A DNA stretch of 37,922 nt from an uncultured virus (IMG/VR IMGVR_UViG_3300042887_005646) (Duplodnaviria; Heunggongvirae; Uroviricota; Caudoviricetes): IMG/VR virus record IMGVR_UViG_3300042887_005646; one strand, written 5' to 3'. The position numbers and the translations under genes were made by a program. The notes below the pieces were generated by a model that ran no database searches, had not been told where the DNA came from, and worked only from the letters and a program-made list of their open reading frames with translations. Numbering within the stretch: the first letter of the stretch is position 1; each line of letters starts with the position of its first letter. Shown here one piece after another: positions 2,886 to 36,897 of this stretch.

Positions 2886-5800
2886 TTAGTTACGGCATCT
2901 ATCCATAACCTCTACCAGCATGCCCTGAGTGTCTACGCCCTCGCGGGAGGCGCGTCTGACAAGTCTTGCGACCTCTCTGGCGAGCCGCCCGTAATAGGCT
3001 GCGTTGCCGCTGCCGCTCGCAATCTCATGCAGGTCATCGGAGATATCGATCGTGGGGTCAATATCTCTCTTGAGCTGCAGGAGGCAGAGCGCGTAGTGCT
3101 TCTGGTCCTCTTCGCTCGAGGTATAATCCGACTCATTGCACGGAATATCGAGTTCCGTGGCAAAGATGCAGATAGCGTTTTTGCCGTAGCTGCTTTCGTA
3201 AGAGGGGCGGGAGCCGTAAGAGGGACGGGAGCTGAAGGGGTTGACTCTGGCAGAGGGGGCTCTGTCGTAGTCTAAGACCTCCGTGAAGCTAGAGGTGCGC
3301 TCGGGCAGCTGAGCGGGGTTACTCATGCGTGCTTTGGGGCTAAACGCACGCTCGGGCAATCTCGAGGGCAGCTGAGCGGGCGGCCGCGAAAGGCGCGGAG
3401 AGGGGTTACTCGTGCGCTCCTTGAGGCTGCTGAACTTGTGGTCGAGCGACTCTCTGAGCGAGGCGGCCTTTCTAGCAATCTCGGGGTTACCGGGGTTAGA
3501 GACGCGCGAAGAGGGTCTGCTGTGCGCAAGTCTGTTCCGCGAGTGATCGGGGTTGGGCGTGCGCCGTTTAACCTTAAAGACGCCGGCCTCGGGGGCAAGG
3601 TCCGCGATGAGCTCTCTAATCTCAGCATTGAAAGCTCTATCGGTCGGCACAAGAGTGTTTATGTCGATAACAAGATTAGCGGGGAGGCCTCTCTTGCCTT
3701 CGATAGCGATGATGAGACGGCGCTCCTCTTTATCGGGGGAGAATCTGGATTCGTCGCCTGGGCGTCTGTTAAGCTCCAGTGCAGGGCTCTCCTGGGCGGC
3801 TCTGAGACTGGACTTAAGCGACTGGAGCTCCCTGTAGGCGCTGACGACCTTACCGGGCAGGAACTCGTCCATTGTATCAATGCCGATGCGGTCGATGTCT
3901 CGGATTGTCATCGGGCGACCGAGACGCGTGATGTTAACCCTCTGTTCGGGTGTAACTTCCCGCGGGTCAATCAGCCCGAGCGAGATAAATTTAGACTCTC
4001 CGCCGCCGCGTGCGCTGCTTTCGGCAATTGCCTTTCTGACATCCTGGAGTTCTGCATTGATGTCGTACAGCCGTTTATTGAAGGTGCGCACATTAGCCAT
4101 TACCTCGAGAGGAAGACCTTCTGGCTTTGTTCTAAGGAACTCGGTGAGGGTTGCGTAGTCACCAGCTAAGCCGCTCCTTGAGCCGATTCCGAGAATTTTC
4201 TCAAGGTCGATGCCGAGCTGCACCGTATCTGCGTCTCTGCCTTCAAACTGGTCTGGGATGCTTACCGCCAAGCGCCCGAAGAGTGTTCTCATGAGGTTGG
4301 TAAGGTAAGCTTCGCGTTTTTTATTGCTATCCGGAGGTGCAGCTGACTGGCGCTCTCCAGTCGCAATCTGATAGAGTCCTTTGAGCATATCGGAGAGCTC
4401 GTTCTCGAGCTGGATAGCGTTTGATCTCGTAGCTGAGGCTGCGGAAACTTGAGCCTCTCCGGCCTCTCTGGCTCTGCCTCCGGCACTGATCGGGACAACC
4501 TTCCCGGTGTAAACGGTGGGGCCGATAGCTGCGGCGCGCTCAAGCGCAGAAAGTCTCTGAGCAAAAGCGCCTCTAACGCCACGGGCGGCCTCTCCGCGCT
4601 GGGCTCTAGCTTCAGTAGACGTCACATCCGTGCCCTGTCGGCCAGTCGCCAGTTTCTTGGCGTAAGGAATGACGTCTTGCTTGGCCTCGAGGTAATCCGA
4701 ATACGCTGCCTGCACATAGTCAGGGAGAGATGCCCTAATAATTGCAGCTTCTTCAGCCGAGACATTTTTACGATTCTCTTTGTTGTATCTATCAATAGCA
4801 AGCTGAAGATTGCTCTGCGCGTTGATGAGATTGCTGTGCTCGATTAACCCAAGCTTAAGGTCTTCAAGTTTTTGCTGAAGCTCTTCTTGCCTGTCGTAGA
4901 CATTCTGCTGGCCGCCGCGCTCGAGTCCCGCGCGGCTTTCGACCATGTCTCTAGTGACAGATTCCCTGGGTATGTTACGCGCATTGGCAATACGCTCTAT
5001 TTCGGAATCTATTGCGCGTGTAGCCGTGTCAAGGGCACGGATCCGATTGGCCATAAAGCGCATATAGTTACCAAAGACATCTTCCGCGCTTGTGGCGACT
5101 CTGGCGAGTGACGCAATGTATTTGTTCCACTCTTTTATCTGGCCGCCAGTCTCGAGCTCGGCAAAGAAGTCTTTATAGTCATTGTTTTGGCTACTCGTGG
5201 CAAGCGGGGATGAGGGCTCCGTAAAGGTGTAAATTACCTTACCCTGAGACTGAGCCAGAGTTATACCGGCATATACACCCTCTACCGACTTTAGGGTTTT
5301 GTCGGGGTAGACCCAGATAACGTCAGAGGCTTCTACGACGGCCCTTGCCGTATTATTGGCCATCTCTTTGGCCTTTTTGCTGTCTACGATGGAGACGCCG
5401 CCCGTGCTCTTAGCGTATTCCAAAATCCGGTTATAGGTATCGCGTCGGTCAGCTGGGGTGGCGGCTTTTCTGCCCCACACCATGTCTGCGAAGCTAACTC
5501 CCTGTTCGTCCTTGTCGTAAGGGACCTCAAGGTGAACATGAATACCCAGCGCCATGGCGGACTCGGCGGCCAGCTCGCTGAAGCCCTCGTTAGCGCTAAG
5601 AACTACGAGCATTTTATCGCCGTAGTATTTTTGGGCACTGTCCAAAAGCGCGTTGAGCTTGGTAGAGAGCTTAGCGGCAATATCCGTGTCTAACTTGAAG
5701 CGCGTAATATAGGCGTCGATTCGCACTATATCCGACTCAGAGTTAGGTTTGTTGACGAGGTCCGCCCGCTTACTAGACAGGAACTCAATGTCCTGAGTGC

Positions 5801-8800
5801 GATCGGCAACCTCTGCGTCGCCCAAGATACCGATGCGTAGCGTGGGGTATCTGAGCTCCGTCTCATAGACAGGCTGACCCGCATCATCAACTTCGCCGGT
5901 AGCGACAAGCTTCACGCCAATCGCAGACTTGGCCTTAATGGCAGCGTCCTTCGCCTGCTGCGCAGTTCTGGCCCGAGTGGCGAGCTCAACACGCGCCTTA
6001 GACCGCGCCGTAAGAATCTCACCTGCCTCACCTCCGCCAGAGGCGAGGAACCCAGAGAGTTCGGCAACGGCGGCAAAAACATCGGCCTCGATTTCCTGTA
6101 TATTAGAATCTTCTGGAGATTCCTGGGTAGGGACAATCTCTTCCTTATACAAAGTTTGTTTTTTGCCTTTTTTGTCTATTGATTCAGCCCCTGTCGGGAC
6201 AAGTCTAAATCTAGGAGCAGGCTTACCTCTAAAACCTCTAATCCTAGGATGGAAAGGCTCAAGCTCTTCGTACTCGCCAAAGAGCGCGTTGACCAGTCTG
6301 CTGATGCTGGTAGCTACTTTCTTTTCGAGGTCCTGCTTAACGGCGGCGGCCGCGGCGCTGTCGACAGGAGCAGCTTTTAGTTTATCGTACCCCAGCGACG
6401 CATTTACTGCCTTAACTATAGCGTCCCTAAAGCCAGGCGGCCCCATAACTTCTCGGCCTGCCTCTTGCTGAGCCCGCATGTCAGAAAGAAGCTTCCTTCT
6501 GTTATAGATGTCTAGCTGAGACTTATACCTCGCGTTTTCGTCAGTCTCCTGGATGTACTTAAACAGGGCCGAATTAATGGCCTCTCTGAAGTCATTGAGG
6601 GAAGTTTGGGTTTGCTCTTCGCTCTCTGCCTGAGCAAGTTTTTCTTCTTTCGTGAGACTCTTTAAGACTTTATTCTCGTCGACCTCTCTAAGCATAAGGA
6701 TGGCCGTTTTTCTAGCATCCTGAGCGGCATCATACTTTTCGATACCGCTGAGCTTAACGTCAACAAAAGCGAGGTCTCCGGTGGGAGTTTTAGTGATTAG
6801 GCGGAGAGGCTTATTATTACGCGGCGAGAAGTCAAACGTAGTGATGTATGCTACGTAGTCATTAAGCGCCTGCTTGTAGGCATCTTTGCGAATAGCCTCC
6901 GCGCTGGAGCCTGCCTGAACGGCAAACCCCAGGGCCCGCTCGCGCGCTGCTGCGATTGCTGAAATTCTGGCCGTCTCAAGGGCCTTAATCTGCTCCGCGG
7001 TGTTAGCCGAGCTAGCTTTTCTGCTGGAGTAAGAAAACGTAATAAGATACTTTTTCTGGCCGTCTTCGCCTTGAACTTCCTGCAGGGCCTGAATGTCTTT
7101 AAGTGGGGTAAATGGATCGCTAGGGGCGCGCTGATCCAGATACTTAATGTAGTCCAATAACGCATCGACCGTTAAGAGAACGTTAACGCGGTCGGCGGCC
7201 TCGCTGGCCTCAATAATGTCTTTATTGATTGCCAATCTCTCTAAATCTGTGGCAACTCTAGCGTTACCTCTTATGCGACGAGCTTTTTTTCTCTCATAAC
7301 GGCTAAGCTCTACTTCGAGGTCTCGAAGTAGATTCTCTGCGCGTACCTGGCTATCACCAATAGCCCTACGACGCTCGCTAGAAGGGCCGGTGAACTCGAT
7401 CTCTTTGAGAGCGTTCCTTCCTTTCTCATCTTTAATTACTTCACAGGTGCTAAACGGCGCGGAGGGATCTTTTTTGGCCGCTTCCAGTCCTGCAAGATAC
7501 TCCTTAACTGATTTAATATAACCTTTATATTTTTCCACTCTTTCGCGAATGTCTATAGCGTGTCCGGATTTGGCTCGCTCGTCGTAAACGCGTACGCCAA
7601 AGGCCTCAGAGTATTTTGCAAAAAGGTCAATTATCGAGTTAGTGTCGCTAATCAGCGCCGTATCTCTTATTGCGTCTTTCTTGTACTCTCCGCGCTCTGT
7701 AATTCTGGACGCTATGTCAACATAACGGTGTATGGCCACGATTGAGGTAAGGATGCTAAGCTTGGCATTCGCACTCTCGCCCTTGAGTCTATCCTCACTA
7801 TCCTCACCAAAGTAAGAGATTGCCTGGTTGAGGTCCTGCTCAAGAATCGACAGCTTTTCGCCACCGATGCCGCTGACGGACTCTGCAAGTACGTACTTGT
7901 ATTCTACATTTTTAGTCGCGGGTACTAGGGGTGCGCGAGGGTCTAGGGCGTCTTTTCTCACCTGAGGCGCGGAAAAGTCGGGCACATCTAAAAACTTAGT
8001 CCTCGGGACAGTTTTTGTTATGCGGACGCCGTCCTCCTCAATTGTTCGTTCTTCCGTCAGTGCCGGGCGCTGGTCGTCCATCGGGACCAGGATCGTTTTA
8101 ACATTTAGGCTCTTAGAGCCGACTGCTGCCCGGTTCTGCTGATACGCCTGAAGAAGTGCGACAAATCTAATCGCCGCCAAGACAAAGGTGAGCTCCGCCA
8201 TGCAATTAGAAAGAGCAGTAACTAACTCATCCGGGTTATTTTTATATTTTTCTAAATCAGTGATCTCACTCAGCCTATCTGATACTTTATTCTTAAGCTT
8301 AAAGCCTGAGAGTGACTCAGTTATATCTCCGCGCTCTTCCGTGAGCTTATCGACCCTATTCCTGATGATACCGTAAATGGGTTTGCCAGTTTTCGCATCT
8401 ATTCCAATAAAGTAACAAGGCTCAGGGCTTTCCGGATTGACGAATGCCTGTGATCTGACCTGCTCGGCGGCAGATTTAGACAGCTCAGCTATTTCGCGAT
8501 CGATAGACTGAATCTCACTAAAGGATTTAGCAGCAAAGGCCTTAGTTCTCTCATCATCATATTCCAGCTCGGCCATGCTGCTAACGCGATAGAAGATTTG
8601 TATAGCCTTTCGCACTCTCGCAGAGCGTCTCGCTATATACTTAGCCTCTTCCGAATCGCCCGATGTGTCTGAGGCGAGACCAGCTAAAGTTCGCGTAAAT
8701 ACACCCAGGTTAGAAATCTCATTGGCCTTAAAACCAATAGCTCTAACAAGCGCGGAGATAAACTCCGCCGCCTTAGAGCTATCTCCTGCTGCGAGCTCTG

Positions 8801-11513
8801 CGCCGAGGTAGCTTTCACCCTCAGACTTTAAATCTGCGTCTTGTAGAGAGCGCTCTTCACCGAGTTCTACCTCTGGGTTAAAGCTGCTTCTATCATATTT
8901 AACAAGAGGCACTCTCGCGTCATTGCTTAAGAGGCATTGTTTTAACTGCCTTTTATAGGATTCTATATCGCTAATCGTTATAGCGGCTGTTTTTTTAGCG
9001 ATCAGGTTTCTGTCTGCTTCTGCCTTAATCTTCGCTTCATAGTCTTCGGCCTCATCCAAGAGGCCGACCACGAAAATGGCTTTGCAGGCTAACGGGTCGT
9101 CAGCGAGCTTGTCCGTGTTTGAAGTGTAGTTTCTGTTCTCTATTTCCTTCTTCTGCCCAGGCGTGAGGGAGTTGCTGCTCACACTGAACATAACACGATC
9201 TATCACGCTATCAGGCTCGCAGGGCTCAATCTCGGCCACCACCTCGAGCCCCTTAAGTCCAACATCTCTGAGTTTTAGATCGGAATTATCAAAGACGGCA
9301 TCAAAGAGACGGCCCTGAGTGGGGCTGCCGCTAATAGTGGGGACGGCCTCCGCTAATCTTCTAGCCTCGGCTTCGGCCTCAATGACGTCTTTTGCGACAA
9401 CAATTCTGTTAATCTTGGCGTGGAGCTTGGTTATCTTTGCGGGTACATTTTCTAAATTCTTATATTTGACAACCGTCTTATCAACGAAAGGCAGCGCGCC
9501 ATCGTAATTAGTGTAGGTTCCATTAACTAGGCCGGGTAGAGTCGTGTAAAGGGCCCTCGAATATTCACTTTTGAGCTCCTGGAGGTTGACAGGGTCGAGG
9601 CGCTTAATCTTATCGAGCCTTGCTGCGGCCGTTTTTTTGATGGCCTCATCCGAAGTAGCTCTGCGAGCGGCATCTCTAGCGCGAAGATTATCGTCCGTGG
9701 GCTCATTTTCATAGAGCTTGGATTTAGCATCTAAATAGGCCAGCGCCTCGTCTTTAACTCGGTCCTCATATTCCTCAGACAGGCTAGCGTAGGCCGACGA
9801 GCTGTCGCGAAGTCCGTAGTAAGCTTCGAGGTCCTGATCGTATTCAGTGAACTTAACAAATGCCCGGCTGAGAGCATTAAGGCTAGTCGTGAAGGATTCA
9901 ATTTTGGGATTTCCGCGCGCTATCGTGTGAAGCTGACGGAGCTTGCCTGCCTTCTCAATAGTCTCATGCGCTACTCTTTTCTCCTCATCAGTCGCCTCGT
10001 CGTCTTCTAAAATAGCGTAAGCGGACTCTAACTTAAGCTTTGCGAGGCCGGCGATGGCACCGTACCGCTTGGTGTAGTTTTTCTCCTCTTCTACTTTGCG
10101 TTTTTCTCTGAGCGATTTTAACTCTTCCTTAAACTGAGTTTCTCTCTGCTCTTTGGCAGTAGCGGCCGCATCATAAGCTAGCTGCGTTAAATCTATGTTA
10201 ATTCTCGCCTCATCTTCATCGGTAAAGCTCGGCGTAAACGGGGTGTTGTTTCTGCGGGCTTCGTTTTCCGCTGCTCTTTTTTCCGCTTTTAGCGGAGCAA
10301 GCACTCTTTGATAGGCCGCAGTATAGAGCTTATTAGCTAGGTCACTATCGCTTTTGTAGAAAGACACTAGCTCTGAAAGCGACCGCTCTTCCTCGTTACG
10401 TTTGTAGCGCGTGATAGCGCCGGCAAAATCTGGCCCAATTTTATTATCCGACTTCAAGCCTACGGCGAGGTTAAGGTCTCTTTGAAGATTTTTCTTTTCG
10501 GGCCCATCGGCCATTAAATTTAATCTGGAGAGCTGATTCTGGAGGGCTTCGCAACGCTCATCAATTTCCCGTGCGCGAATGCTGTACTTAGCGTTAGCGT
10601 CCTTCAGCTCTTCGCTAAAATGCTTTCTCAGCCATTCAGAGTAGGCCAAGATAGCAGCCTCGCCTTTATCTTCGGCATTGTTCAACCTGCTGATAGCAAT
10701 ACCCGAATTAGTGCGATTAACTCTGAAGTGGTCTTCAAAAACGCCGCCTATGCCCGAGGGGTGGTCAGACTCCTTTTTTGCAGACGGGCTGAGCAGATAG
10801 ACCGGGTTAGAAAAAGACTGGAATGCGGCCTCTATAAGCGCGTGAACGCCAGGAATCACTGTGCCGCTATCTTCCGTGACGTCTCTATAGCAGAGTCCCC
10901 CGCCGTCGCATCCGAGAGGTCCGACGACAATACCGACCTGGCTAGCATCTCTGTCGCTAGCTAAAATATCATTGACCGCGTCGACGGCGCCGGAGAGTGC
11001 TAGCTCGACAGCTGCAGTAGTAGCGTCAGATTGATAGTCCTTAGCCACGACTGCGAAAATGATTCTATAGGTCCGGCCCTTAAAAGAGACCTCAATCGGC
11101 TGATTGGAGAGATCGCCTATGACTACCGACCCGGGGGCGACGTCTTTGGCTGCCAAAATAGCCAGATATTTGTCGAAAGCGGCTTGGAAGGGGAGCGCGG
11201 CAAACTCGCTGTTTCCGGTAGCGATTTTGTAATCGCCGATGTTATTCACAAATACGCCGGTAGGACCAATTAGCTTTTTCTGAGCCTGCTTGCTGTTGAG
11301 GGTCTCAGTTTTGGAATCTTTAGTCTTAGCGAGAACTGGCCGGCCGTTCGGGCCCCGCTCTAACGTGAGCACGTAATTGTCCTTAAGATCTTTAACAGAC
11401 AAGGCCGGGGTCTTGGACATGAATTTTAATGACCCGGGCACGCCCAGAATCAGTATCTGGCGATTGTTAGAAACTTCACTGCCCAGAAGATCACGAACGT
11501 TAATTACAGCCAT
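2886..11513 (-). CDS. Giant multidomain protein (2875 aa): N-terminal macrodomain-like region, long charged helical region, SLOG-like domain, RxxNP-rich tail
   Basis: Uninterrupted 8.6-kb ORF. GPLGCDGGGLCYRDV resembles DarG-type PPLGCGNGGLDW. A YpsA-like segment lies at 5214-5840. The tail has RTPNP, RVSNP, RTSNP and RMSNP. Confidence 0.9.
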   Translation of the reverse strand: MAVINVRDLLGSEVSNNRQILILGVPGSLKFMSKTPALSVKDLKDNYVLTLERGPNGRPVLAKTKDSKTETLNSKQAQKKLIGPTGVFVNNIGDYKIATGNSEFAALPFQAAFDKYLAILAAKDVAPGSVVIGDLSNQPIEVSFKGRTYRIIFAVVAKDYQSDATTAAVELALSGAVDAVNDILASDRDASQVGIVVGPLGCDGGGLCYRDVTEDSGTVIPGVHALIEAAFQSFSNPVYLLSPSAKKESDHPSGIGGVFEDHFRVNRTNSGIAISRLNNAEDKGEAAILAYSEWLRKHFSEELKDANAKYSIRAREIDERCEALQNQLSRLNLMADGPEKKNLQRDLNLAVGLKSDNKIGPDFAGAITRYKRNEEERSLSELVSFYKSDSDLANKLYTAAYQRVLAPLKAEKRAAENEARRNNTPFTPSFTDEDEARINIDLTQLAYDAAATAKEQRETQFKEELKSLREKRKVEEEKNYTKRYGAIAGLAKLKLESAYAILEDDEATDEEKRVAHETIEKAGKLRQLHTIARGNPKIESFTTSLNALSRAFVKFTEYDQDLEAYYGLRDSSSAYASLSEEYEDRVKDEALAYLDAKSKLYENEPTDDNLRARDAARRATSDEAIKKTAAARLDKIKRLDPVNLQELKSEYSRALYTTLPGLVNGTYTNYDGALPFVDKTVVKYKNLENVPAKITKLHAKINRIVVAKDVIEAEAEARRLAEAVPTISGSPTQGRLFDAVFDNSDLKLRDVGLKGLEVVAEIEPCEPDSVIDRVMFSVSSNSLTPGQKKEIENRNYTSNTDKLADDPLACKAIFVVGLLDEAEDYEAKIKAEADRNLIAKKTAAITISDIESYKRQLKQCLLSNDARVPLVKYDRSSFNPEVELGEERSLQDADLKSEGESYLGAELAAGDSSKAAEFISALVRAIGFKANEISNLGVFTRTLAGLASDTSGDSEEAKYIARRSARVRKAIQIFYRVSSMAELEYDDERTKAFAAKSFSEIQSIDREIAELSKSAAEQVRSQAFVNPESPEPCYFIGIDAKTGKPIYGIIRNRVDKLTEERGDITESLSGFKLKNKVSDRLSEITDLEKYKNNPDELVTALSNCMAELTFVLAAIRFVALLQAYQQNRAAVGSKSLNVKTILVPMDDQRPALTEERTIEEDGVRITKTVPRTKFLDVPDFSAPQVRKDALDPRAPLVPATKNVEYKYVLAESVSGIGGEKLSILEQDLNQAISYFGEDSEDRLKGESANAKLSILTSIVAIHRYVDIASRITERGEYKKDAIRDTALISDTNSIIDLFAKYSEAFGVRVYDERAKSGHAIDIRERVEKYKGYIKSVKEYLAGLEAAKKDPSAPFSTCEVIKDEKGRNALKEIEFTGPSSERRRAIGDSQVRAENLLRDLEVELSRYERKKARRIRGNARVATDLERLAINKDIIEASEAADRVNVLLTVDALLDYIKYLDQRAPSDPFTPLKDIQALQEVQGEDGQKKYLITFSYSSRKASSANTAEQIKALETARISAIAAARERALGFAVQAGSSAEAIRKDAYKQALNDYVAYITTFDFSPRNNKPLRLITKTPTGDLAFVDVKLSGIEKYDAAQDARKTAILMLREVDENKVLKSLTKEEKLAQAESEEQTQTSLNDFREAINSALFKYIQETDENARYKSQLDIYNRRKLLSDMRAQQEAGREVMGPPGFRDAIVKAVNASLGYDKLKAAPVDSAAAAAVKQDLEKKVATSISRLVNALFGEYEELEPFHPRIRGFRGKPAPRFRLVPTGAESIDKKGKKQTLYKEEIVPTQESPEDSNIQEIEADVFAAVAELSGFLASGGGEAGEILTARSKARVELATRARTAQQAKDAAIKAKSAIGVKLVATGEVDDAGQPVYETELRYPTLRIGILGDAEVADRTQDIEFLSSKRADLVNKPNSESDIVRIDAYITRFKLDTDIAAKLSTKLNALLDSAQKYYGDKMLVVLSANEGFSELAAESAMALGIHVHLEVPYDKDEQGVSFADMVWGRKAATPADRRDTYNRILEYAKSTGGVSIVDSKKAKEMANNTARAVVEASDVIWVYPDKTLKSVEGVYAGITLAQSQGKVIYTFTEPSSPLATSSQNNDYKDFFAELETGGQIKEWNKYIASLARVATSAEDVFGNYMRFMANRIRALDTATRAIDSEIERIANARNIPRESVTRDMVESRAGLERGGQQNVYDRQEELQQKLEDLKLGLIEHSNLINAQSNLQLAIDRYNKENRKNVSAEEAAIIRASLPDYVQAAYSDYLEAKQDVIPYAKKLATGRQGTDVTSTEARAQRGEAARGVRGAFAQRLSALERAAAIGPTVYTGKVVPISAGGRAREAGEAQVSAASATRSNAIQLENELSDMLKGLYQIATGERQSAAPPDSNKKREAYLTNLMRTLFGRLAVSIPDQFEGRDADTVQLGIDLEKILGIGSRSGLAGDYATLTEFLRTKPEGLPLEVMANVRTFNKRLYDINAELQDVRKAIAESSARGGGESKFISLGLIDPREVTPEQRVNITRLGRPMTIRDIDRIGIDTMDEFLPGKVVSAYRELQSLKSSLRAAQESPALELNRRPGDESRFSPDKEERRLIIAIEGKRGLPANLVIDINTLVPTDRAFNAEIRELIADLAPEAGVFKVKRRTPNPDHSRNRLAHSRPSSRVSNPGNPEIARKAASLRESLDHKFSSLKERTSNPSPRLSRPPAQLPSRLPERAFSPKARMSNPAQLPERTSSFTEVLDYDRAPSARVNPFSSRPSYGSRPSYESSYGKNAICIFATELDIPCNESDYTSSEEDQKHYALCLLQLKRDIDPTIDISDDLHEIASGSGNAAYYGRLAREVARLVRRASREGVDTQGMLVEVMDRCRN
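5214..5840 (-). other. SLOG superfamily (YpsA/DUF1273-like) domain within the 2875-aa protein
   Basis: LRIGILG...VVLSANEGFSELAAESAMALGIHVHLEVPY...W...RDTYNRILEYA...AVVEASDVIWVY.D...G....ITLAQSQGKVIYTF follows YpsA motif order (by-eye alignment). Confidence 0.65.
10785..11513 (-). other. Macrodomain (DarG/TARG1-like), probably degenerate, within the 2875-aa protein
   Basis: RDLL start, AFDKYLAILAAKDVAPGSV, YRIIFAVVAKDY, GIVVGPLGCDGGGLCYRDV and LIEAAF...VYLLSP match DarG macro motif order (by-eye alignment). Confidence 0.7.
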
Positions 11514-25510: not shown

Positions 25511-25511
25511 A

Positions 25512-27734: not shown

Positions 27735-27814
27735 TATAAATCTCCGTAAATCAGCAGAAGATACCAAAAACTACATCAAGAAGTCGCTTTAAAAATACGT
27801 TGGCTATAGAGAGT

Positions 27815-28333: not shown

Positions 28334-28341
28334 ACATTTCC

Positions 28342-28875: not shown

Positions 28876-28877
28876 TA

Positions 28878-29447: not shown

Positions 29448-29448
29448 A

Positions 29449-30033: not shown

Positions 30034-30045
30034 ATTAAGCTCAGT

Positions 30046-30573
30046 TTATCTAGGGGCAGTGGCTATTAAAGAGCCCGATATTCGTAATTTTAAAGGGAGA
30101 CTGACTAGATTAAGGTCACTATCTATTCTCCTAAAAACTACCCTAATGAAAATATTTTGTGCTAAATTTGCAAAATTACTAAGTTGAGGGAAAGCAATTG
30201 CGCCGTTAGACGCATACATCTGCGTAAAAAAGGGAGTGTAGAACTGAGAAAAAGATATCTGATCCATTATGCCCGATATGCCAGCATACTCGCCGTATAG
30301 GCCTGCTGATATCTCTAATCTCCCGCTATATTCGATTAACTGTTTATCTAGGAACTTAACGGCGACCAGCCCGTTTACTATTTTGCATATTCCACGGTCA
30401 GACCCTGCGGGGCGCCCCTCAATGGGGTATTCAGTGGTCAGACGTGGGCTCTCCCAGTAGGCAATATCTTTTCCGCTTCTTGCATTTGAGCCGGCGGGTA
30501 CTGGAGCATTTGCAGGGTAGAGCTCGCTGTCAAATAGCACGTTATTAAACTCCTGTACAGCGTAGCCCTTCAT
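30046..30573 (-). CDS. Paralog-array protein A (175 aa)
   Basis: GAGAGGA RBS; WESPRLTT, IVNGLVAVKFLDKQ, QMYASNGAIAFPQ, NLAQNIFIRV. Confidence 0.9.
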   Translation of the reverse strand: MKGYAVQEFNNVLFDSELYPANAPVPAGSNARSGKDIAYWESPRLTTEYPIEGRPAGSDRGICKIVNGLVAVKFLDKQLIEYSGRLEISAGLYGEYAGISGIMDQISFSQFYTPFFTQMYASNGAIAFPQLSNFANLAQNIFIRVVFRRIDSDLNLVSLPLKLRISGSLIATAPR

Positions 30574-30602
30574 GAATCCTCTCTACCGGTATAACAGTAA
30601 CT

Positions 30603-30636
30603 AAAAAGGCCCCACAACCATACATCACGGGGCCTT
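30603..30636 (-). terminator. Intrinsic terminator
   Basis: Minus strand AAGGCCCC...GGGGCCTTTTT, 20 nt after the stop at 30655. Confidence 0.7.
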
Positions 30637-30654
30637 AAAAAGCTAGAGCTTTCT

Positions 30655-31263
30655 TTAGACTTTAGCCACGGACCATTCCGTGTCCTTTCCGCCTAAGATT
30701 GCCTTAGCGCGGTCGAGCGTGATCGCGCTTTCACTGGCGGCGGTGCCGGCTGCATCGGGGATGCGGGAGAGGATAGAGGCCTGCTTGTTATCCGCGGGCT
30801 GGCTAATCGGGACGCTCAGTAACCCGAAGTCGGGCTTGCCCGCGAGGGTGCGCGTGATCGCTGTCACGTCACTGCCCTTGTCGGAGAAGCGATGGGTGCC
30901 GGATGTAAAGGGCTGGAAGATTCGGGCCGATTCCCCTGCCGGGGTCGCCTGCGCGGACGTGTCCAGCATAAACTTACCGCTCTCGTAAACTACAAGCGCG
31001 TCGCCATTGTCATAGTTAACGACATAGCGGCCCTCGAAAGTGGGGATTTTGTCGGGGCCGTAGGAATCGCCCTTAAGGCCGTAGAACCTGGACTTGCTTG
31101 AGACGGGCGTAGCGGGGGAGCGGCTCATAAAGTATATGATGCCGGCAAGCGCAATAACACCGGCGATAACAAGGGGCTTAGTCCCGTAAAAGCCGAACGG
31201 ATTGGCCGCTCTTTTCTGCAAAGCGGTGTGATTTCTCGCTTTAGATTTATGCCGTCTTGCCAT
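30655..31263 (-). CDS. Single-pass membrane protein (202 aa; start revised to ATG 31263)
   Basis: GGGAG RBS before MARRHKSKARNH; a basic leader ends at RAANP, followed by hydrophobic LVIAGVIALAGIIYFM. Confidence 0.85.
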   Translation of the reverse strand: MARRHKSKARNHTALQKRAANPFGFYGTKPLVIAGVIALAGIIYFMSRSPATPVSSKSRFYGLKGDSYGPDKIPTFEGRYVVNYDNGDALVVYESGKFMLDTSAQATPAGESARIFQPFTSGTHRFSDKGSDVTAITRTLAGKPDFGLLSVPISQPADNKQASILSRIPDAAGTAASESAITLDRAKAILGGKDTEWSVAKV

Positions 31264-31306
31264 AAAAAACTCCCATATTAAATTAAACGCCGGCCTCTCT
31301 GACTCC

Positions 31307-31333
31307 AAAACCCCGTGGCGTGAACCTACGGGG
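31307..31333. repeat. Intergenic 27-bp hairpin repeat, copy 1
   Basis: AAAACCCCGTGGCGTGAACCTACGGGG. Confidence 0.95.
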
Positions 31334-31363
31334 CGATGGGCGGCCGCCCTAACAAAATGCCGG

Positions 31364-31981
31364 TTACTTAAACTTCGCAATCGCGGCGCGAATGATCTTA
31401 ATGTCTAGATTTCTGAGGGCAGGGCCGTCTATTTCCTTAGAAAAGCAAATGCGGCCTCTCTGAGCGGCTGCTTTAGCGGGTTTCACATCAGATTTAAGCT
31501 GCTGAACGACAGTCTTTGGAGACACTTCATACTGCTCCGCATCCTCAATCTCAAAAGCCGCTATTGCGGCCAAAGCTCCGACCAAGGCATTGAGGTTAGT
31601 GAGCTTAATGCAGTTATCCGCAGTGAGAGAAAACTTAGGGACTACGTCCGTGTCTGATTTGTACTTTCCGAGCTTGGCTTTTTCAATGGCCGCTCGGTTG
31701 CACATAAGATACAGCTTCCCCAAAACGCCGCTACCCCAGAATTCATCACTGAAAGCATTTGGGAACTCATGACGAAGGAACCTCTTTAGCTCGGCCTTAA
31801 TGTCCTCGGGGGTGGCTTCGCGGCCGAATTCATTTTCAATGTTGAACTTGGCATTCCGAATAACACTGTTAACGACGGCATTGAAATTGGAGATCTTGAT
31901 GAGGCCGTCTTTAGTAACCGTGAAATTGGGCGACACATACTTAAAAGTCTTTGGGCGCTTAAAATTCTTTTTGCCTGGCAT
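31364..31981 (-). CDS. Hypothetical protein (205 aa) with internal duplication
   Basis: AGGAG RBS; PNFTVTKDGLIKISNFNAVV resembles PKFSLTADNCIKLTNLNALV. Confidence 0.85.
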   Translation of the reverse strand: MPGKKNFKRPKTFKYVSPNFTVTKDGLIKISNFNAVVNSVIRNAKFNIENEFGREATPEDIKAELKRFLRHEFPNAFSDEFWGSGVLGKLYLMCNRAAIEKAKLGKYKSDTDVVPKFSLTADNCIKLTNLNALVGALAAIAAFEIEDAEQYEVSPKTVVQQLKSDVKPAKAAAQRGRICFSKEIDGPALRNLDIKIIRAAIAKFK

Positions 31982-32014
31982 AGCTGTTCTCCTGTTACGG
32001 GGCGGGTCTATTAA

Positions 32015-32551
32015 TTAGCGACCGTAACCACGGCGATGATGGCGGTGACCGGGGTTGGTCATTCTGGCATAACCGAAGCCGCCGGACAGGTCGTCGTACG
32101 GGTCTTCCTCATAGTTATAGCCGTAGCCTGGGTTTGGGGTGCGGTCGTAGTCCCTAACGTCGTAAACGACGTACGGAGTCCCATCCGGACGCATCGCCAT
32201 TCTGCTCATGCTGTTGCTGCGGCCCCTAATGCTGAGCGACGAAATAATTTCGCGCTGCGCGGCCTCGATCAGCGGAACATGATGCTCTTCAACAAAGGCA
32301 CGAAATAAGTCCGCGCCCCTCAAGTCCGCGCCCTCCAGGTTAGCGCCCACAAAGTTAGCGCCCGACAAGCCCGCGCCCTCCAAGTTCGCGCCCGCCAAGT
32401 TAGCGCCCGACAAGTCCGCGTTCCTCAAGTTCGCTACCACCAAGTTCGCGCCCGCCAAGTTAGCGCCCGCCAACTTCGCGCCATGCAATTTTGCGCCCGG
32501 CCCAATCTGATAGCCGTTAACAATACCTGTTCCGTCCGGTCCAATAGCCAT
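32015..32551 (-). CDS. Pentapeptide-repeat protein with RxxNP tail (178 aa)
   Basis: About 13 A(N/D/K)Lxx repeats; AGGAG RBS; tail RTPNPGY...[16 protein letters not shown]. Confidence 0.9.
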
Positions 32552-32592
32552 GTTATACTCCTAAAACTGTGGGATTTTAACCTTTTGTCGCA

Positions 32593-32619
32593 AAAACCCC
32601 GTGGCGTGAACCTACGGGG
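32593..32619. repeat. Intergenic 27-bp hairpin repeat, copy 2
   Basis: AAAACCCCGTGGCGTGAACCTACGGGG, identical to copy 1. Confidence 0.95.
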
Positions 32620-32639
32620 TTAGTGGAAGCGGGGGAAAA

Positions 32640-33068
32640 TTAGCCCCAGGCGCAGCCAGGCAGATTTCTGTTGGAAAGCTTGGCGCCCTCATTGATTGCA
32701 AACCCGGCGCCGATGCAGCGCTTGCCCTGGGGGCCGAGGAAGTTGACGCGATCGCCAAAAAGAATAGCGGGGTAGCAAACGCCCTCAAACTCTACGCTAA
32801 TTGCTGCAATTCTAGAATTGCCGCTGCTGCGATTGGGCGGAATGGCCTCAAAGCGGCAGCCCCGTTTGCGGCAGTCGTCAAGGCTGAGGAGGAAACAGCC
32901 CTCTTCCGGGCGGTCGTCAATAACCAAAACGCGGCCGTCGCTGTAGCGGATGCCGAAGGTGTGGTCATCTTTTCCGGCAACACTAACTCTAACAAACTGA
33001 ATGGGGGTGGTGGCCTGACGGCCAGAAGGAAGGCCACGAACGGAGACGGCTGGGGGAATGATCGGCAT
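32640..33068 (-). CDS. Hypothetical beta-rich protein (142 aa), probable paralog of 33153-33773
   Basis: AGGAG RBS; QFVRVSVAG...FGIRYSDGRVLV resembles QLVKITLPG...IGIIYPDNEILV. Confidence 0.8.
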   Translation of the reverse strand: MPIIPPAVSVRGLPSGRQATTPIQFVRVSVAGKDDHTFGIRYSDGRVLVIDDRPEEGCFLLSLDDCRKRGCRFEAIPPNRSSGNSRIAAISVEFEGVCYPAILFGDRVNFLGPQGKRCIGAGFAINEGAKLSNRNLPGCAWG

Positions 33069-33103
33069 CTGAGACTCCTATCTAAAAAGGGTTGTTTACC
33101 GCC

Positions 33104-33130
33104 AAAACCCCGTGGCGTTAACCTACGGGG
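33104..33130. repeat. Intergenic 27-bp hairpin repeat, copy 3
   Basis: AAAACCCCGTGGCGTTAACCTACGGGG. Confidence 0.95.
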
Positions 33131-33152
33131 CGGGCGGGATAGGTCTATATTA

Positions 33153-33773
33153 TTAGACGTCGTTTTTCGCGACCGTGACGGCTTCCTCGACTTTCTCTGC
33201 GACCTGAGCCGCAGCCTGGGCAGGCTTTTTAGCGCGGAGAGCAGCCTTCTTCTTGGCGTAATCGCTGACCTTAGACGGCGAATCGTCCTCGCCATCCCAA
33301 TCAAAGTCGGGCTCCAGGCGCGAAGCAACAATGTATCCGCCACGGATGCAGTCAAGGAAGTCCTCAAGGCAGACAATTCTGTCGCCCTTTCTGAAGTAAA
33401 TGTCACCACGGCAAGCGATAGCCGGGATAACTCTACCCTCATCGAAGCGCTTAATGCTTACGCCGGCGAAGTTACCGAGCTTTCTGCCGAGAGAGGACTC
33501 TTCGTCCTCAGTAATAACGTCGATCTTAATTCTGCAGGGCGACTTGGGCTTAATCGCCAGCGCCTTCGCGGCCTCGTCCAGCCCGGGGTGCTTAGCGTTA
33601 AGCTGCCGAGAGACGCCTCCCTGGCTGCACATCTTAATTAAGGCCGCAAGGGGCATAAGGCGCACAGCCTTCTTACCTCTGAAAACGAGGATCTCGTTAT
33701 CAGGGTAAATAATGCCGATAGCGTCGGCGCCCGGGAGAGTAATCTTAACAAGCTGACAAGTCTTTTTAGCCAT
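33153..33773 (-). CDS. Hypothetical protein (206 aa)
   Basis: TAAGGAG RBS; lies between repeat copies 3 and 4. Confidence 0.85.
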   Translation of the reverse strand: MAKKTCQLVKITLPGADAIGIIYPDNEILVFRGKKAVRLMPLAALIKMCSQGGVSRQLNAKHPGLDEAAKALAIKPKSPCRIKIDVITEDEESSLGRKLGNFAGVSIKRFDEGRVIPAIACRGDIYFRKGDRIVCLEDFLDCIRGGYIVASRLEPDFDWDGEDDSPSKVSDYAKKKAALRAKKPAQAAAQVAEKVEEAVTVAKNDV

Positions 33774-33811
33774 TTTAACTCCTTATTAGTTAATGGACTG
33801 GGTCTGCCGCC

Positions 33812-33838
33812 GAAACCCCGTGGCGTCAACCTACGGGG
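33812..33838. repeat. Intergenic 27-bp hairpin repeat, copy 4
   Basis: GAAACCCCGTGGCGTCAACCTACGGGG. Confidence 0.95.
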
Positions 33839-33860
33839 TGGGCGGAAGGGAGTTCCTAGC

Positions 33861-34736
33861 TTACGGGGCCGGGAATCTCATACAGTGCAACGTAACATTG
33901 AGCGATGCGATGTAGTCAAACAGGTAGACCGACGAGGTAATACCGGTCGAGGGCTGCGGAACGAGCTTGGGCACGCGGCAGTTAATACGAATCGTCTCGG
34001 CTCTGCTGATGTACGGGATAAGATCCCAGATGTACGAAAGCTTACCGTCGCCACACCACTCAGAAAGAGGCGCGTAGTCGGTGAAGATGTTCTCGTTGTT
34101 AGCGCGCTCGAGCTTGCCCTCAATGTAGTCCATAGGAGCCACATTGTTGTTAAAGGGGCCAGTCTCAATGCTGTTGGCGAAAGCGGCGTTCAGAACCGGG
34201 TCAGTGACCGTGGCCGTTACCTTACGAATGTAGGTAGCGAACGGGAAATAATACTCCAGCGTGAACTCCGCGTTCTGATCGTTCGTCGGGTCTTCGCTAT
34301 TAAGAATGATATTAGTAATCTTCTTAGGAACGATGAAAGGACGAAGAATCGTCTGGGGACCTAACTGCTCGCCGGCCTGACGCGAAAGGGCGTCAAGTCG
34401 GGACATTTCGCCAGGGGTACGCTCAGCCAGGAACTGGTCCTGGAAAGTGTTACCCTGCGGGTACATCATCGGGCTGCCGGGGCCCTGCTGACGTACGGGC
34501 TCAGAATTTCCCATGCCCTGCTGATAATAGCCGGCGTGCTGATGCTGAGGCGGAATAGTTCCGGGCGGAAACTGGCCCGGCGGATAGTGCCCTGGTCCAT
34601 AAGGGCCAGGGCCCTGGGCGACATACCCATTTGGCGACTGAGAGGCCGGCGGGCTCGGCTGAGCCGGGGCGTATGGATAACTCGGCCCACCGAAAGGATA
34701 CTGCGGCTGATCTAAAGGTGATCTTCTATTACTCAT
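33861..34736 (-). CDS. Candidate second/minor jelly-roll capsid protein with P/G/Q/Y-rich N-terminal arm (291 aa)
   Basis: About 100-aa low-complexity arm, then about 165 aa of beta-strand-like pattern ending LNVTLHCMRF. Directly downstream of the capsid candidate. The ORF is clear; the function is inferred. Confidence 0.45.
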   Translation of the reverse strand: MSNRRSPLDQPQYPFGGPSYPYAPAQPSPPASQSPNGYVAQGPGPYGPGHYPPGQFPPGTIPPQHQHAGYYQQGMGNSEPVRQQGPGSPMMYPQGNTFQDQFLAERTPGEMSRLDALSRQAGEQLGPQTILRPFIVPKKITNIILNSEDPTNDQNAEFTLEYYFPFATYIRKVTATVTDPVLNAAFANSIETGPFNNNVAPMDYIEGKLERANNENIFTDYAPLSEWCGDGKLSYIWDLIPYISRAETIRINCRVPKLVPQPSTGITSSVYLFDYIASLNVTLHCMRFPAP

Positions 34737-34763
34737 TTGTTTAAGCTCCGTTTATTCCTAACG

Positions 34764-34797
34764 AAAAGAGCCGCGCCACTTTTCAATGACGCGGCTC
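34764..34797 (-). terminator. Intrinsic terminator after the capsid candidate
   Basis: Minus strand GAGCCGCGTCAT-loop-GTGGCGCGGCTC followed by TTTT. Confidence 0.8.
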
Positions 34798-34840
34798 CTA
34801 GGGCCAGAGTTATCTGGTAGGTGTCTTACGCTGTCGGGTA

Positions 34841-35551
34841 TTACGCCGAGACAACGTTGAAGCGCCAGCCGGTCATGACAAGACCAACAACCGCCGTCGA
34901 GACGATCGGGTTGTTCTCAGCCTTCGGGGCGGGAGCCTGCGTGATGAAGGCGGGCTGGTGAAGACGCAGTTTAAAAATAATCTGCTGCTTCGCGGGGAAG
35001 AAGAGACCGCCGTCGGCCGGAAGGCGACGAGCAACCGTACCACCGTTGGTGGGGAAGCTGATCGTGCTGTTCGCCACCGTGGTCGAAGCTGCCTTCGACT
35101 GGGTGCCGTACTCAGCGCAGGGCCAGTAGCGGGTCGCGCCGCACTCCCAGGTCATCGAAAGACGCTCCTGGTAGATCGACGTCTCCGAGGTAACCCAGTC
35201 GGTGATGTGCGAGGGGCAGGAGGTGAAGACGTCAACGCCGAGCGAGTCAGCGATGAACTCCGAGCCAGCGGGGATCTTACCGCTGTCCTTGAGGTTCGTC
35301 TGGGCCTGGGTCAGCGGGCGAGACTGAGCGTTGGCCGTTGCGTAATCCTGGTACCAACCCTGGCCCGTCTGACCGACGCCAGCAGAGAAGAACACGATCT
35401 CCTGCTGGGTGATGAGACCAGTCGTCTTATCCGCATATCCTGCGAGGTTGACCTGCGAGTACAGGGGCTCGTAGAAAATCGTCTGAGCGATGTTCTGGTT
35501 GGTGAGGAAGGTATTCATTGCGGTCTTAGCAGCACTAGCGTTCTGGAACAT
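34841..35551 (-). CDS. Candidate major capsid protein, single-jelly-roll type (236 aa)
   Basis: AGGAG RBS, own promoter and terminator, strong GC3 codon bias. Pattern PLY...FF...GQ...T...TNL...G.IP....F....LGV and terminal strand LVMTGW recall uncharacterised viral capsid-like proteins (recollection, not a search). Confidence 0.55.
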   Translation of the reverse strand: MFQNASAAKTAMNTFLTNQNIAQTIFYEPLYSQVNLAGYADKTTGLITQQEIVFFSAGVGQTGQGWYQDYATANAQSRPLTQAQTNLKDSGKIPAGSEFIADSLGVDVFTSCPSHITDWVTSETSIYQERLSMTWECGATRYWPCAEYGTQSKAASTTVANSTISFPTNGGTVARRLPADGGLFFPAKQQIIFKLRLHQPAFITQAPAPKAENNPIVSTAVVGLVMTGWRFNVVSA

Positions 35552-35595
35552 GGGTTACTCCTGTTGTTGTTCCGTTGAAAAATTCAATTATGAGA

Positions 35596-35623
35596 GTCTT
35601 AGCACAGTAAAAGTGGTTTGCAA
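35596..35623 (-). promoter_or_regulatory. Putative promoter of the capsid candidate
   Basis: Minus strand TTGCAA-16 nt-TAAGAC with TGC before the -10. Confidence 0.5.
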
Positions 35624-35625
35624 GA

Positions 35626-35653
35626 GGTTTGCTCAACTTTTTTTGAGCAAACC
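35626..35653. promoter_or_regulatory. Perfect 11-bp inverted repeat (terminator, RNA-stabilising hairpin or operator)
   Basis: GGTTTGCTCAA-6 nt-TTGAGCAAACC between the 409-aa gene stop and the -35 box. Confidence 0.6.
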
Positions 35654-35667
35654 CCTAGCTTACCGAA

Positions 35668-36897
35668 TTAGCACATCTGGGGGACGGTGACCTGGTTGCC
35701 CTGCATGACGCTGTGGGGCGCCACGACGGGGACCGGGAGCTCAGCGGCCGTGAATACGGTGCCAAGCATGCCCTCGTCGTCAAAGATGCTACCGAGCATT
35801 GCGTTGGTCTCGGGAAGGTTCTCGAGGACGGTGGCGCCCATGCCGTAGTCGCCATAGCTACCATGCATGTCGCTGTAGTCATAGGTACCAAGCATCGCGT
35901 TGGGGTCGTTCAGGCCCGGGAGAACCAGAGCGCCGTTCATCGCGGGCGAGGGGCCGGTGAGGGCGAAGGTGCCAGCCGCGGGGCCGGTGAGGGCCATAAC
36001 GCCCGAAGCGGGGACGAGTTCGGCTCTCTTGAGGCCATCATAGGCGAGGACGGCGCCAGCGGCGATCGCGGCCGGACGGATGTCGAAGCCGATCTTGCCA
36101 CCAAAGCGCTCCTGAAGGTAGTCACCAGCGACGGCAACCAGAGCGCCAGCGGCGAGGTGCGCGTAACCGATGAACTTCGGGTTCTCCTTGAGGTAGCCAA
36201 TGCTGCTGAGACCGTCGCCAACGATCGGAGCAAGGCGGGCAGCGATAAACGCGCCAGCGATAAGCAGACCGGTCTGGATCAGGGTCGCCTTCACGTCAAA
36301 GCCGGGGTTATGGCGACGAGCGTGAGCGCGGTGACGTCTGACACGACGGGGGTTGGCGTGACGGCCCTTGGCGTGGGCGCGACGGAGGCGGGCCGAGGGA
36401 TTCGCGGCGCGCTTCGACTTCTTCTTGCCGGCCTTACCCTTTTTCTTGCCCTTCTTGCCAAGTGCGCTCATGAATTCGCGCATCTCGGGCGAGCCCTTAC
36501 CAGCAGCGAAAGCCTCGGCGCGGGTAACCTTACGCGCTTTGCCCTTGCCGCTTCTCTTGGCGGGCGACTTCGCCTTCGACTTCGACTTCGACTTCGACTT
36601 CGACTTCGACTTCGACTTCGACTTCGACTTCGACTTCGACTTCGCCTTGGTCTTAGGGGCGGCCTTCTTCTTGCCGGCCTTCTTCTTGCCCTTGTTCGCC
36701 ACGCGGCCAAGGCCGCCGGCGTCGATAAGGTCACGAGCGGAAGCCGAAAGCTTAGCGCCGCCTCTTCTCAGACGGGGATTGCCAACGCGGGACAGTGCAT
36801 CATGTAGGGACATCTTCTTCATTGTCTTCTTCTCCTTTAACTGTGAGTGCGAGGGGCTCGGATTTGTGACTCTCGCTGGAATCCATTTAACAGACAT
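35668..36897 (-). CDS. Lys/Arg-rich putative DNA-condensing membrane protein (409 aa) with five RxxNP motifs
   Basis: About 200-aa basic half with (SK)11 and RVTNP, RVGNP, RAANP, RHANP, RRHNP; then three hydrophobic helices and an acidic tail; strong GC3 bias. Confidence 0.8.
   Translation of the reverse strand: MSVKWIPARVTNPSPSHSQLKEKKTMKKMSLHDALSRVGNPRLRRGGAKLSASARDLIDAGGLGRVANKGKKKAGKKKAAPKTKAKSKSKSKSKSKSKSKSKSKSKSKAKSPAKRSGKGKARKVTRAEAFAAGKGSPEMREFMSALGKKGKKKGKAGKKKSKRAANPSARLRRAHAKGRHANPRRVRRHRAHARRHNPGFDVKATLIQTGLLIAGAFIAARLAPIVGDGLSSIGYLKENPKFIGYAHLAAGALVAVAGDYLQERFGGKIGFDIRPAAIAAGAVLAYDGLKRAELVPASGVMALTGPAAGTFALTGPSPAMNGALVLPGLNDPNAMLGTYDYSDMHGSYGDYGMGATVLENLPETNAMLGSIFDDEGMLGTVFTAAELPVPVVAPHSVMQGNQVTVPQMC
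36574..36639. repeat. Perfect hexamer microsatellite (CTTCGA)x11 encoding Ser-Lys repeats
   Basis: Counted directly. Confidence 0.95.

Follow-up and report, generated by a model that had tools for sequence, protein, structure and literature searches.

Shared maturation and targeting motifs coordinate the fate of dozens of proteins in large virions. Related precedents for the motif described here are the site motifs of the prohead proteases of the phages T4 (gp21) and phiKZ. In adenovirus, a jelly-roll virus, basic DNA-condensing peptides are cut from the core precursors pVII, pre-mu and pVI at a shared motif, the consensus of the adenovirus protease being (M/I/L)XGX-G or (M/I/L)XGG-X. Other known comparators are the cargo-loading peptides of encapsulins and terminal address tags, as well as the Asx-Pro turn or helix N-capping box. 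In phage SPN3US, gp245 is described as cutting nine head proteins after AXE, at 14 sites in all, the propeptides containing multiple copies of the motif, and the propeptides of T4 are described as targeting proteins to the prohead core (PMC10052503). Asparagine peptide lyases are described as including reovirus mu-1 (N7, Asn-42), FlhB/YscU (N6, cut between Asn and Pro of Asn-Pro-Thr-His) and the coat proteins of nodaviruses and tetraviruses (PMC3207474). Here we describe a 37,922-nucleotide stretch of DNA from an uncultured virus (IMG/VR record IMGVR_UViG_3300042887_005646; the whole stretch is called the window) in which the motif Arg-x-x-Asn-Pro (RxxNP) recurs in nine carrier proteins and probably serves them all as a signal for cutting or addressing.

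As in the substrate sets of T4, phiKZ and SPN3US, one short motif is found in many unrelated proteins, mostly near their termini and in multiple copies. RxxNP occurs 24 times where 1.6–1.8 occurrences are expected, and the nine carriers are putative particle proteins. In contrast to SPN3US and T4, the sites present Asn-Pro and not Glu at P1, and sites in C-terminal tails are as frequent as N-terminal ones. The window also differs from the prohead-protease phages: searches of it revealed neither a protease nor a portal nor an HK97-type coat protein, and its context looks tailless and membrane-containing. With adenovirus it shares the jelly-roll context and a basic arm, in a protein of 409 amino acids (aa), that would yield basic Arg/His peptides of 15–16 aa. 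It differs from adenovirus by the motif RxxNP itself, by a prokaryotic host as judged from Shine-Dalgarno sites, and by the membrane anchoring of the arm. The original prediction had pointed to adenovirus and poxvirus maturation as analogies, but the consensus motifs of both are unrelated to RxxNP in sequence. The adenovirus protease system was rejected as a candidate: its two consensus patterns were found only 5 and 11 times and are not conserved, and no match to Peptidase_C5 was obtained with Pfam.

Enrichment of RxxNP and its conservation in relatives

The 30 translated open reading frames (ORFs) of the window comprise 12,176 residues with 24 exact RxxNP sites. Arg stands at position −3 in 24 of all 44 Asn-Pro dipeptides, for which the probability at an Arg frequency of 0.063 is 8e-18. 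Shuffling of whole proteins gave an expectation of 1.61 sites (maximum 6), shuffling within blocks of 40 aa 1.74 (maximum 7) and within blocks of 20 aa 1.77 (maximum 7; n = 1000 each), so that the excess over local shuffles is about 14-fold. Since even the 20-aa blocks yield only about 1.8 sites against 24, the enrichment survives control for the local composition of disordered, Arg-rich segments. Among the 8,000 patterns of the type a..bc, RxxNP ranks first by over-representation (Poisson p 5e-20); the patterns ranked next are C..VN and W..PR, which come from ten paralogs, and G..GF and D..DD, which come from simple repeats. The mirror pattern PN..R and the pattern K..NP have two occurrences each. 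The three plus-strand frames contain 1, 0 and 1 matches, and the two non-coding minus frames contain five stop-free and two stop-containing ones. The codons at the sites vary for Arg (CGC 11, AGA 7, CGG 2, CGT 2, AGG 1, CGA 1), Asn (AAC 15, AAT 9) and Pro (CCC 12, CCG 6, CCA 4, CCT 2). From the varied codons and the nearly empty other frames it follows that the signal lies at the protein level and not in the DNA.

These counts agree well with the original prediction. It had listed 22 sites, each of which was recovered in the protein named for it, and two more were found; its variants RVNP (in a 2875-aa protein) and RTPSNP (in a 277-aa protein) are both present. Its chance estimate of one to two sites is matched by the shuffles (1.61–1.77), the enrichment holds against a composition-matched background, and its argument from codon variation is borne out by six Arg, two Asn and four Pro codons. 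The description of the nine carriers as unrelated stands insofar as they have no mutual BLAST similarity at E<1e-3; in the all-against-all comparison of the window proteins at this threshold, a group of jelly-roll paralogs is the sole family. It does not hold for a short C-terminal module ahead of the tail, which by local alignment is common to the 1005-aa and 1954-aa proteins (z 10) and is present more weakly in the 2875-aa protein (z 6.1). The common module reads ADxLYxIxS...NLGExxYxR and is located at 21855–22000 in the 1005-aa and at 15074–15300 in the 1954-aa protein, followed by RTPNP in the former and RRIPPQ in the latter.

Eleven homologs of the 409-aa protein, all of them metagenome proteins, were obtained from a word-indexed database (49–83% identity over the searched residues 150–409). 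In these homologs 48 of 51 Asn-Pro pairs are RxxNP, and the three exceptions all stem from one conserved ENPKF, which the three closest homologs have in their membrane part. In the alignment of all 12 sequences, the residues R, N and P are invariant (12/12) at RVGNP and at the pre-membrane site RRHNP; at RAANP, 11 of 12 sequences have them. Around the kept motif the flanks, rich in Lys, Ser and Ala, differ in both sequence and length, and homologs gain RxxNP at non-aligned positions (RAPNP, RHENP). One site of the family reads RxxNG in six homologs; another (RVANK, residue 65) is RxxNK in four sequences including that of the window and RxxNP in the remaining 8 of 12. Because Pro changes to Gly or Lys while Arg and Asn are retained, Arg and Asn are kept more strictly than Pro, and recognition would be centred on Asn. 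The spacing of the first sites is 26–31 aa in all 12 members, and that of the later ones 15–21 aa in most.

For the 277-aa protein, an exhaustive HMMER search found three relatives only. The N-terminal RxxNP is kept (RAANP, REANP) in both homologs that cover it, down to 33% identity. A compact syntenic relative of the window was found on an 8,955-bp metagenome contig (L001), with homologs of the 155-, 157-, 409-, 236- and 291-aa proteins in this order, then two jelly-roll genes and then the N-terminus of the 1005-aa protein. Its 409-aa homolog has 31% identity, all four of its Asn-Pro pairs are RxxNP, and it carries WIPARVTNP at its extreme N-terminus and RAKNPGFDLK ahead of the membrane helix. 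Conservation thus extends over two families of carriers and a syntenic relative that is distant. Like the test for enrichment, this check, which the original prediction had proposed as a possible refutation, came out in favour of a functional motif. Judged from sequence, RxxNP is a genuine short linear motif under selection and functional in the evolutionary sense.

At the strain level, contigs of four lake runs were compared with positions 17000–36999 of the window. The differences covered number 40 of 606; none falls in a motif codon, but with an expectation of about 0.3 the comparison has no power. Contigs of other lake metagenomes show many joints, replacements and length changes in the regions 24232–24507 (a poly-Asp/Glu stretch of the 1005-aa protein) and 36407–36656 (a Lys/Ser repeat of the 409-aa protein), which means that the low-complexity arms of these two proteins vary in length between strains. 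A 15-base deletion was seen at 21866, beside RHSNP within PSYDR repeats.

Placement of the sites in the carrier proteins

The sizeable ORFs of the window all lie on the minus strand, tightly packed or overlapping, and all features given below are on that strand. The carrier with most sites is the 409-aa polycationic, membrane-anchored protein (35668–36897), with RVTNP (36859–36873), RVGNP (36775–36789), RAANP (36397–36411), RHANP (36349–36363) and RRHNP (36304–36318). All five are contained in an arm formed by residues 1–198 with a net charge of +61, and a transmembrane (TM)-like segment at about residues 205–227 starts 9 aa past RRHNP. The start of the protein, MSVKW, is preceded by a GGAG Shine-Dalgarno site. 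The second membrane protein, of 202 aa (30655–31263), has its single site RAANP (31198–31212) about 9 aa ahead of the TM helix, so that in both membrane proteins the last RxxNP ends 9 aa ahead of a TM-like helix. Its start is likely the ATG at 31263 and not that of a longer TTG-initiated ORF reaching 31380, because the extension includes a copy of an intergenic hairpin (31302–31333).

In the 178-aa pentapeptide-repeat protein (32015–32551; Pfam PF00805, E 1e-23), RTPNP (32129–32143) and RMTNP (32051–32065) lie in an R/Y/H-rich C-terminal tail. No match to this protein was found in the compact syntenic relative. A motif-bearing tail on such an accessory domain is as expected for a transferable tag, and the pentapeptide domain looks like cargo that was given one. 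Contigs from two lake runs connect 32619 back to 32012; these joins indicate that the hairpin-flanked pentapeptide gene may be duplicated in tandem or rearranged in related strains.

The 1005-aa protein (21801–24818), whose N-terminal domain is kept in the compact relative, has RANNP (24198–24212) directly after a poly-Asp/Glu stretch of about 100 aa, and RTPNP (21954–21968) and RHSNP (21855–21869) in an R/H/Y-rich C-terminal tail. In the 277-aa protein (20939–21772), RVSNP (21686–21700) follows an acidic leader; next come the variant RTPSNP and then RQENP (21560–21574) at the start of a helix. The RHPNP of the 1954-aa protein (15074–20938) is located at 20885–20899, between a basic/aromatic leader of 13 aa and an acidic repeat region. 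The 278-aa protein (13856–14692) has RESNP (14177–14191) ahead of an amphipathic hydrophobic stretch and RATNP (13919–13933) near its C-terminus. In the 516-aa protein (12237–13787), RTSNP (12357–12371) and RAHNP (12318–12332) are 13 aa apart and flank an Arg/His peptide near the C-terminus. A long region of this protein consists of Gly/Phe repeats (units GAGFGG and GFGPGGFG) resembling FG-type cohesive repeats, and the coiled-coil-like segments that flank it are repeated three times. The 2875-aa protein (2886–11513) carries RTPNP (3549–3563), RVSNP (3492–3506), RTSNP (3402–3416) and RMSNP (3315–3329), separated by gaps of 19, 30 and 29 aa, in a disordered stretch 120–225 aa from the C-terminus; its variant RVNP is at 3237–3248. 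The two additional exact matches, RVNNP (26390–26404) and RKSNP (26798–26812), are inside two of ten jelly-roll paralogs. We regard them as probably chance matches, because they occupy folded positions that are not conserved in the paralog alignment and about 1.7 chance sites are expected.

Four carriers have a site near the N-terminus (residues 9–13 in the 409-aa, 14–18 in the 1954-aa, 25–29 in the 277-aa and 18–22 in the 202-aa protein), with leaders of 12–36 aa in the first three. The other five (2875, 516, 278, 1005 and 178 aa) have sites in C-terminal tails, such tails holding two to four sites. Adjacent sites are 13–33 aa apart and often enclose Arg/His/Tyr-rich peptides. Within the motif, Thr, Val, Ala, His and Met predominate at position −2, and position −1 is small (Ser in 8, Pro in 4, Thr in 3 and Ala in 3 of the 24 sites); Pro is followed by Gly in 7 of 24 sites and by various residues in the others. 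The flanks are more hydrophilic than the background (mean Kyte-Doolittle value −1.07 versus −0.41; Mann-Whitney p 1e-5). The placement originally described was correct: the sites lie in termini and linkers, where they often separate an arm that is basic or rich in R/H/Y from a membrane helix or a folded part. Five sites stand in acidic contexts with Asp at −1 relative to the motif (e.g. FDDRANNP and FDRHPNPEDDD), which disfavours a purely DNA-binding role; an AT-hook-like DNA-binding motif was rejected on the same five sites.

What may read the motif

The occurrence of one motif in nine mutually dissimilar carriers indicates one common reader. Likewise, the strict tripartite signature combined with motif turnover in drifting disordered arms argues for a short linear motif that is read by a common factor. 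A fixed residue followed by two semi-specific positions and Asn-Pro looks like the P4–P1' subsite pattern of a protease, and the placement of the sites behind leaders, after an acidic stretch and as brackets in tails fits the removal of propeptides. We therefore tentatively favour, well short of confidence, an address-and-cut signal for particle maturation. Motif-bearing arms would bring unrelated proteins into the assembling particle, namely giant coiled-coil proteins, membrane proteins, the polycationic DNA-facing protein and the accessory pentapeptide-repeat protein. One virus-encoded, Asn-centred enzyme would then trim the arms by recognizing Arg (P4), an aliphatic residue, Thr or His (P3), a small residue (P2), Asn (P1) and Pro or Gly (P1'). 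Trimming would strip the acidic leaders, and the basic arms would be reduced to short Arg/His peptides, 15–16 aa long in the case of the 409-aa arm, which remain associated with the DNA. The motif, its enrichment, its conservation and its placement are observed; the particle context, the common reader and the cleavage itself are inferred.

Several points weigh against such an address-and-cut signal. No protease family was found in the 30 ORFs with Pfam and PHROGs or in 21 of them with NCBIfam, the window covering roughly 38 kb of a contig some 100 kb long, and neither a capsid hallmark nor a protein that might read the motif was identified in the window. Most proteases disfavour Pro at P1'. 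In the 409-aa family, conservation at the N-terminal site extends over about 13 residues on both sides of Asn-Pro (WIPARVTNPSPSH), which resembles a binding epitope more than a bare scissile site. At several sites the sequence continuing from Asn-Pro is helix-like (NPELALD, NPAKAAEA, NPEIARKAA), and a structural N-cap would account for this as well. We deduce the virion location of the carriers solely from jelly-roll folds and gene order.

It is possible, although on the unlikely side, that RxxNP is a docking or packaging tag that stays uncut and is bound by a shared hub such as the base of a coat protein, a scaffold or a membrane protein, where tandem copies would give avidity and register on a periodic lattice. 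Such a tag would account for the residues conserved on both sides of Asn-Pro in the 409-aa family, for the kept spacing (26–31 aa in 12 of 12 sequences and later 15–21 aa in most), for the tandem arrays in disordered tails and for the tail on an accessory pentapeptide domain, and it has a precedent in the T4 propeptides described as targeting the prohead core (PMC10052503). Like the cargo-loading peptides of encapsulins, RxxNP is short, conserved and carried by unrelated cargo on disordered termini, in one case by an accessory domain; unlike them, it forms tandem repeats, is also found at internal sites and has no known shell partner. However, no partner was identified, and five copies in the DNA-facing arm of charge +61 are hard to explain for a protein that is already anchored in the membrane. 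A strict Asn next to a Pro that tolerates replacement by Gly or Lys is also more usual for the subsite of an enzyme than for a turn epitope.

Rather unlikely in our view is a structural hinge that needs no dedicated reader, in which an Asx-Pro turn or helix N-cap (Asn as N-cap, Pro as N1) with a flanking Arg would mark the junction of flexible basic arms with helices or membrane segments and could aid contact with DNA or lipid headgroups. Asn and Pro are favoured at helix starts, two sites stand 9 aa ahead of TM helices and several are followed by helix-like sequence, so that, as in the N-capping box, Asn-Pro lies where a flexible segment meets a helix or membrane segment. However, 7 of the 24 sites are Asn-Pro-Gly and start no helix, the downstream sequence differs between sites, and some sites are in strongly acidic contexts (FDDRANNP, FDRHPNPEDDD). 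A hinge explains neither the fixed Arg three residues upstream nor the roughly 14-fold, lineage-specific excess in unrelated proteins, and it leaves unexplained that Pro is replaceable by Gly or Lys while Asn is not.

Modification of Asn or Arg by a viral or host enzyme without cleavage is improbable; it would produce the same strict Arg and Asn with tolerant positions −2 and −1, but the window showed no match to a transferase or hydroxylase family, and we know of no precedent for modification at an RxxNP-type sequon. Assembly-triggered self-cleavage at Asn, with the chemistry of asparagine peptide lyases and a succinimide at Asn-Pro or Asn-Gly, is very improbable as well. Asn is the key residue in both cases, here strictly kept with Pro or Gly as its partner, FlhB cuts at Asn-Pro, and five of ten lyase families are described as viral coat proteins that mature in this way on assembly (PMC3207474). 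In contrast, the known lyases cut a single site in a folded, self-processing domain that supplies the catalytic partner, whereas here up to five to seven sites per protein are found in disordered arms of many unrelated proteins. The analogy to FlhB/YscU in the original prediction was not supported, since none of the 44 Asn-Pro pairs is NPTH and no FlhB-type domain was found with Pfam. Finally, a composition or repeat artefact or a DNA-level signal, suggested by the low complexity and Arg richness of the carriers, can practically be dismissed in view of 1.8 sites in 20-aa shuffles against 24 observed, varied codons, nearly empty other frames and carriers that are not paralogs.

Other motifs containing Asn-Pro were rejected. 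The motif of 2A-type ribosome skipping ends in NPGP, which was found 0 times, and the sorting signal of sortase B, NP(Q/K)(T/S)(N/G/S) followed by a hydrophobic tail, had 0 matches. The endocytic motifs NPxY and NPF had four and three matches, which are not conserved.

Beyond the address-and-cut signal as such, we speculate, with considerable doubt, that the lineage consists of large, probably tailless, membrane-containing viruses with an Asn-centred processing code R-x-x-N-(P/G), which would chop membrane-anchored polycationic precursors into protamine-like, genome-condensing Arg/His peptides. An Asn-specific viral enzyme, or assembly-triggered Asn chemistry, would act on disordered arms and strip acidic leaders, and the same tag would load accessory cargo. 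Such a system would correspond, in prokaryotes, to the core maturation of adenovirus and would have a new specificity.

Gene block, lineage and significance

Many genes of the window have a GGAG-type Shine-Dalgarno site ahead of their start or are coupled as TAATATG or ATGA, which indicates a bacterial or archaeal host. Searches of the 30 ORFs with Pfam and PHROGs and of 21 with NCBIfam gave no match except the pentapeptide-repeat domain (32015–32551). Nothing useful was obtained with Pfam at E<=10 for eight proteins or in a sequence search of the PDB with three queries, and neither a tRNA nor an Rfam family was detected in the window.

Ten tandem single jelly-roll paralogs of 173–195 aa occupy 24923–30573 (confident AlphaFold2 model with a predicted template modelling score of 0.77). 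They have 21–43% identity to the first, and eight of them show a conserved WESPRLTT and CRTVNG core. With two such genes in the compact relative, the ten are a large lineage-specific expansion. The best structural match of the model is the projection domain of VP2 of the birnavirus IBDV (infectious bursal disease virus; Z 9.3, root-mean-square deviation 3.2, 132 aligned residues), and further matches are TNF/C1q-like trimers, PBSX XepA, the SPV1 coat protein (Z 7.8) and coat proteins of small viruses. These matches show a generic jelly roll and do not establish any particular role.

The 236- and 291-aa genes (33861–35551), both without RxxNP, are candidate coat protein genes, proposed because they are the most conserved genes, as is usual for coat proteins: their identity to the compact relative is 82% and 71%, compared with 31–44% for their neighbours, and 22 homologs were found. 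The AlphaFold2 model of the 236-aa protein from a 21-sequence alignment did not resolve the fold (mean predicted local distance difference test score 48.6), and an atlas look-up gave a weak lead (0.76–0.78) to the PM2 P2 and PRD1 P3 capsid families. The 291-aa protein (33861–34736) has a disordered, Pro/Gln/Gly/Tyr-rich N-terminus of about 100 aa followed by a conserved C-terminal domain, a layout also seen in the compact relative.

Directly upstream of the 409-aa gene, the 157-aa protein (36980–37450) ends in ...AIEHRDGDPHIIEHGIIN. Its H-x-x-E-H pattern, which could be a metal-binding site, is kept in the compact relative as HIKEH, with RKGNP in place of the RDGDP that comes before it. The searches assigned this protein to no family, and atlas matches to RAMP-like proteins (0.83–0.86) were treated as chance since few features are in common.

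A GC-rich hairpin followed by a U-run (consensus CCCCGYAGGYTNACGCCRCGGGGYTTYGGCGG) occurs on the minus strand at 33807–33838, 33099–33130, 32588–32619 and 31302–31333, and in the compact relative at about 4889–4920, 6051–6082, 6401–6432 and 6698–6729. It stands 25–45 nucleotides upstream of gene starts, with four copies in the window where 0 are expected and four in the relative, and folds with −28.8 kcal/mol (z −3.0). The hairpin is probably an intergenic terminator or regulatory element of the lineage.

Homologs were found solely in lake metagenome assemblies, on contigs of up to 99,922, 115,085 and 146,853 bases, and 5 of the 24 listed lake-water metagenome runs, all of DNA, contain at least half of the sampled words of the window DNA; two of these five may be the source of the window. 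Scans of viral contigs, including one for the DNA pattern of the hairpin, and scans of genome contigs gave no relatives, and the scan of metagenome contigs gave two loci only. An 18-residue match in a metagenome-assembled genome of Thalassospira (L003) was rejected as spurious, as no other window protein matches there. A tblastn search with the 236-aa and a 180-aa protein against 50,697 phage records had no match. In titles and abstracts on large jelly-roll viruses of prokaryotes no description of the lineage was found, and a literature search for RxxNP yielded no description of the motif among the matches listed, which concern the unrelated CagV and choanoflagellate G-protein-coupled receptors. 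Jelly-roll viruses with an internal membrane, PRD1/PM2-like in the broad sense, have a jelly-roll coat protein, a packaging ATPase and internal membrane proteins. In the window, the modelled single jelly rolls match generic ones (Z up to 9.3), the candidate coat protein gave no usable fold, membrane proteins are present and no ATPase was found. On our reading, the block would build the particle of a large virus of bacteria or archaea that is probably membrane-containing and probably tailless.

In conclusion, shared maturation and targeting motifs of large virions are already known as a kind, and the RxxNP sequence is a variant new to it. Such motifs offer a sequence-only route to listing the contents of a particle. 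In a virus group that has neither a cultured member nor database annotation, RxxNP marks nine otherwise unannotatable proteins, and nothing else gives a clue to the function of their genes. Should the sites be cut, the specificity of the enzyme for the Asn-Pro bond would be unusual, and the 409-aa membrane-anchored polycation would be a core precursor for condensing DNA. To our knowledge, and without a dedicated search, a precursor of this type is known in no cultured phage. If the sites stay uncut, the motif would be a portable address tag.

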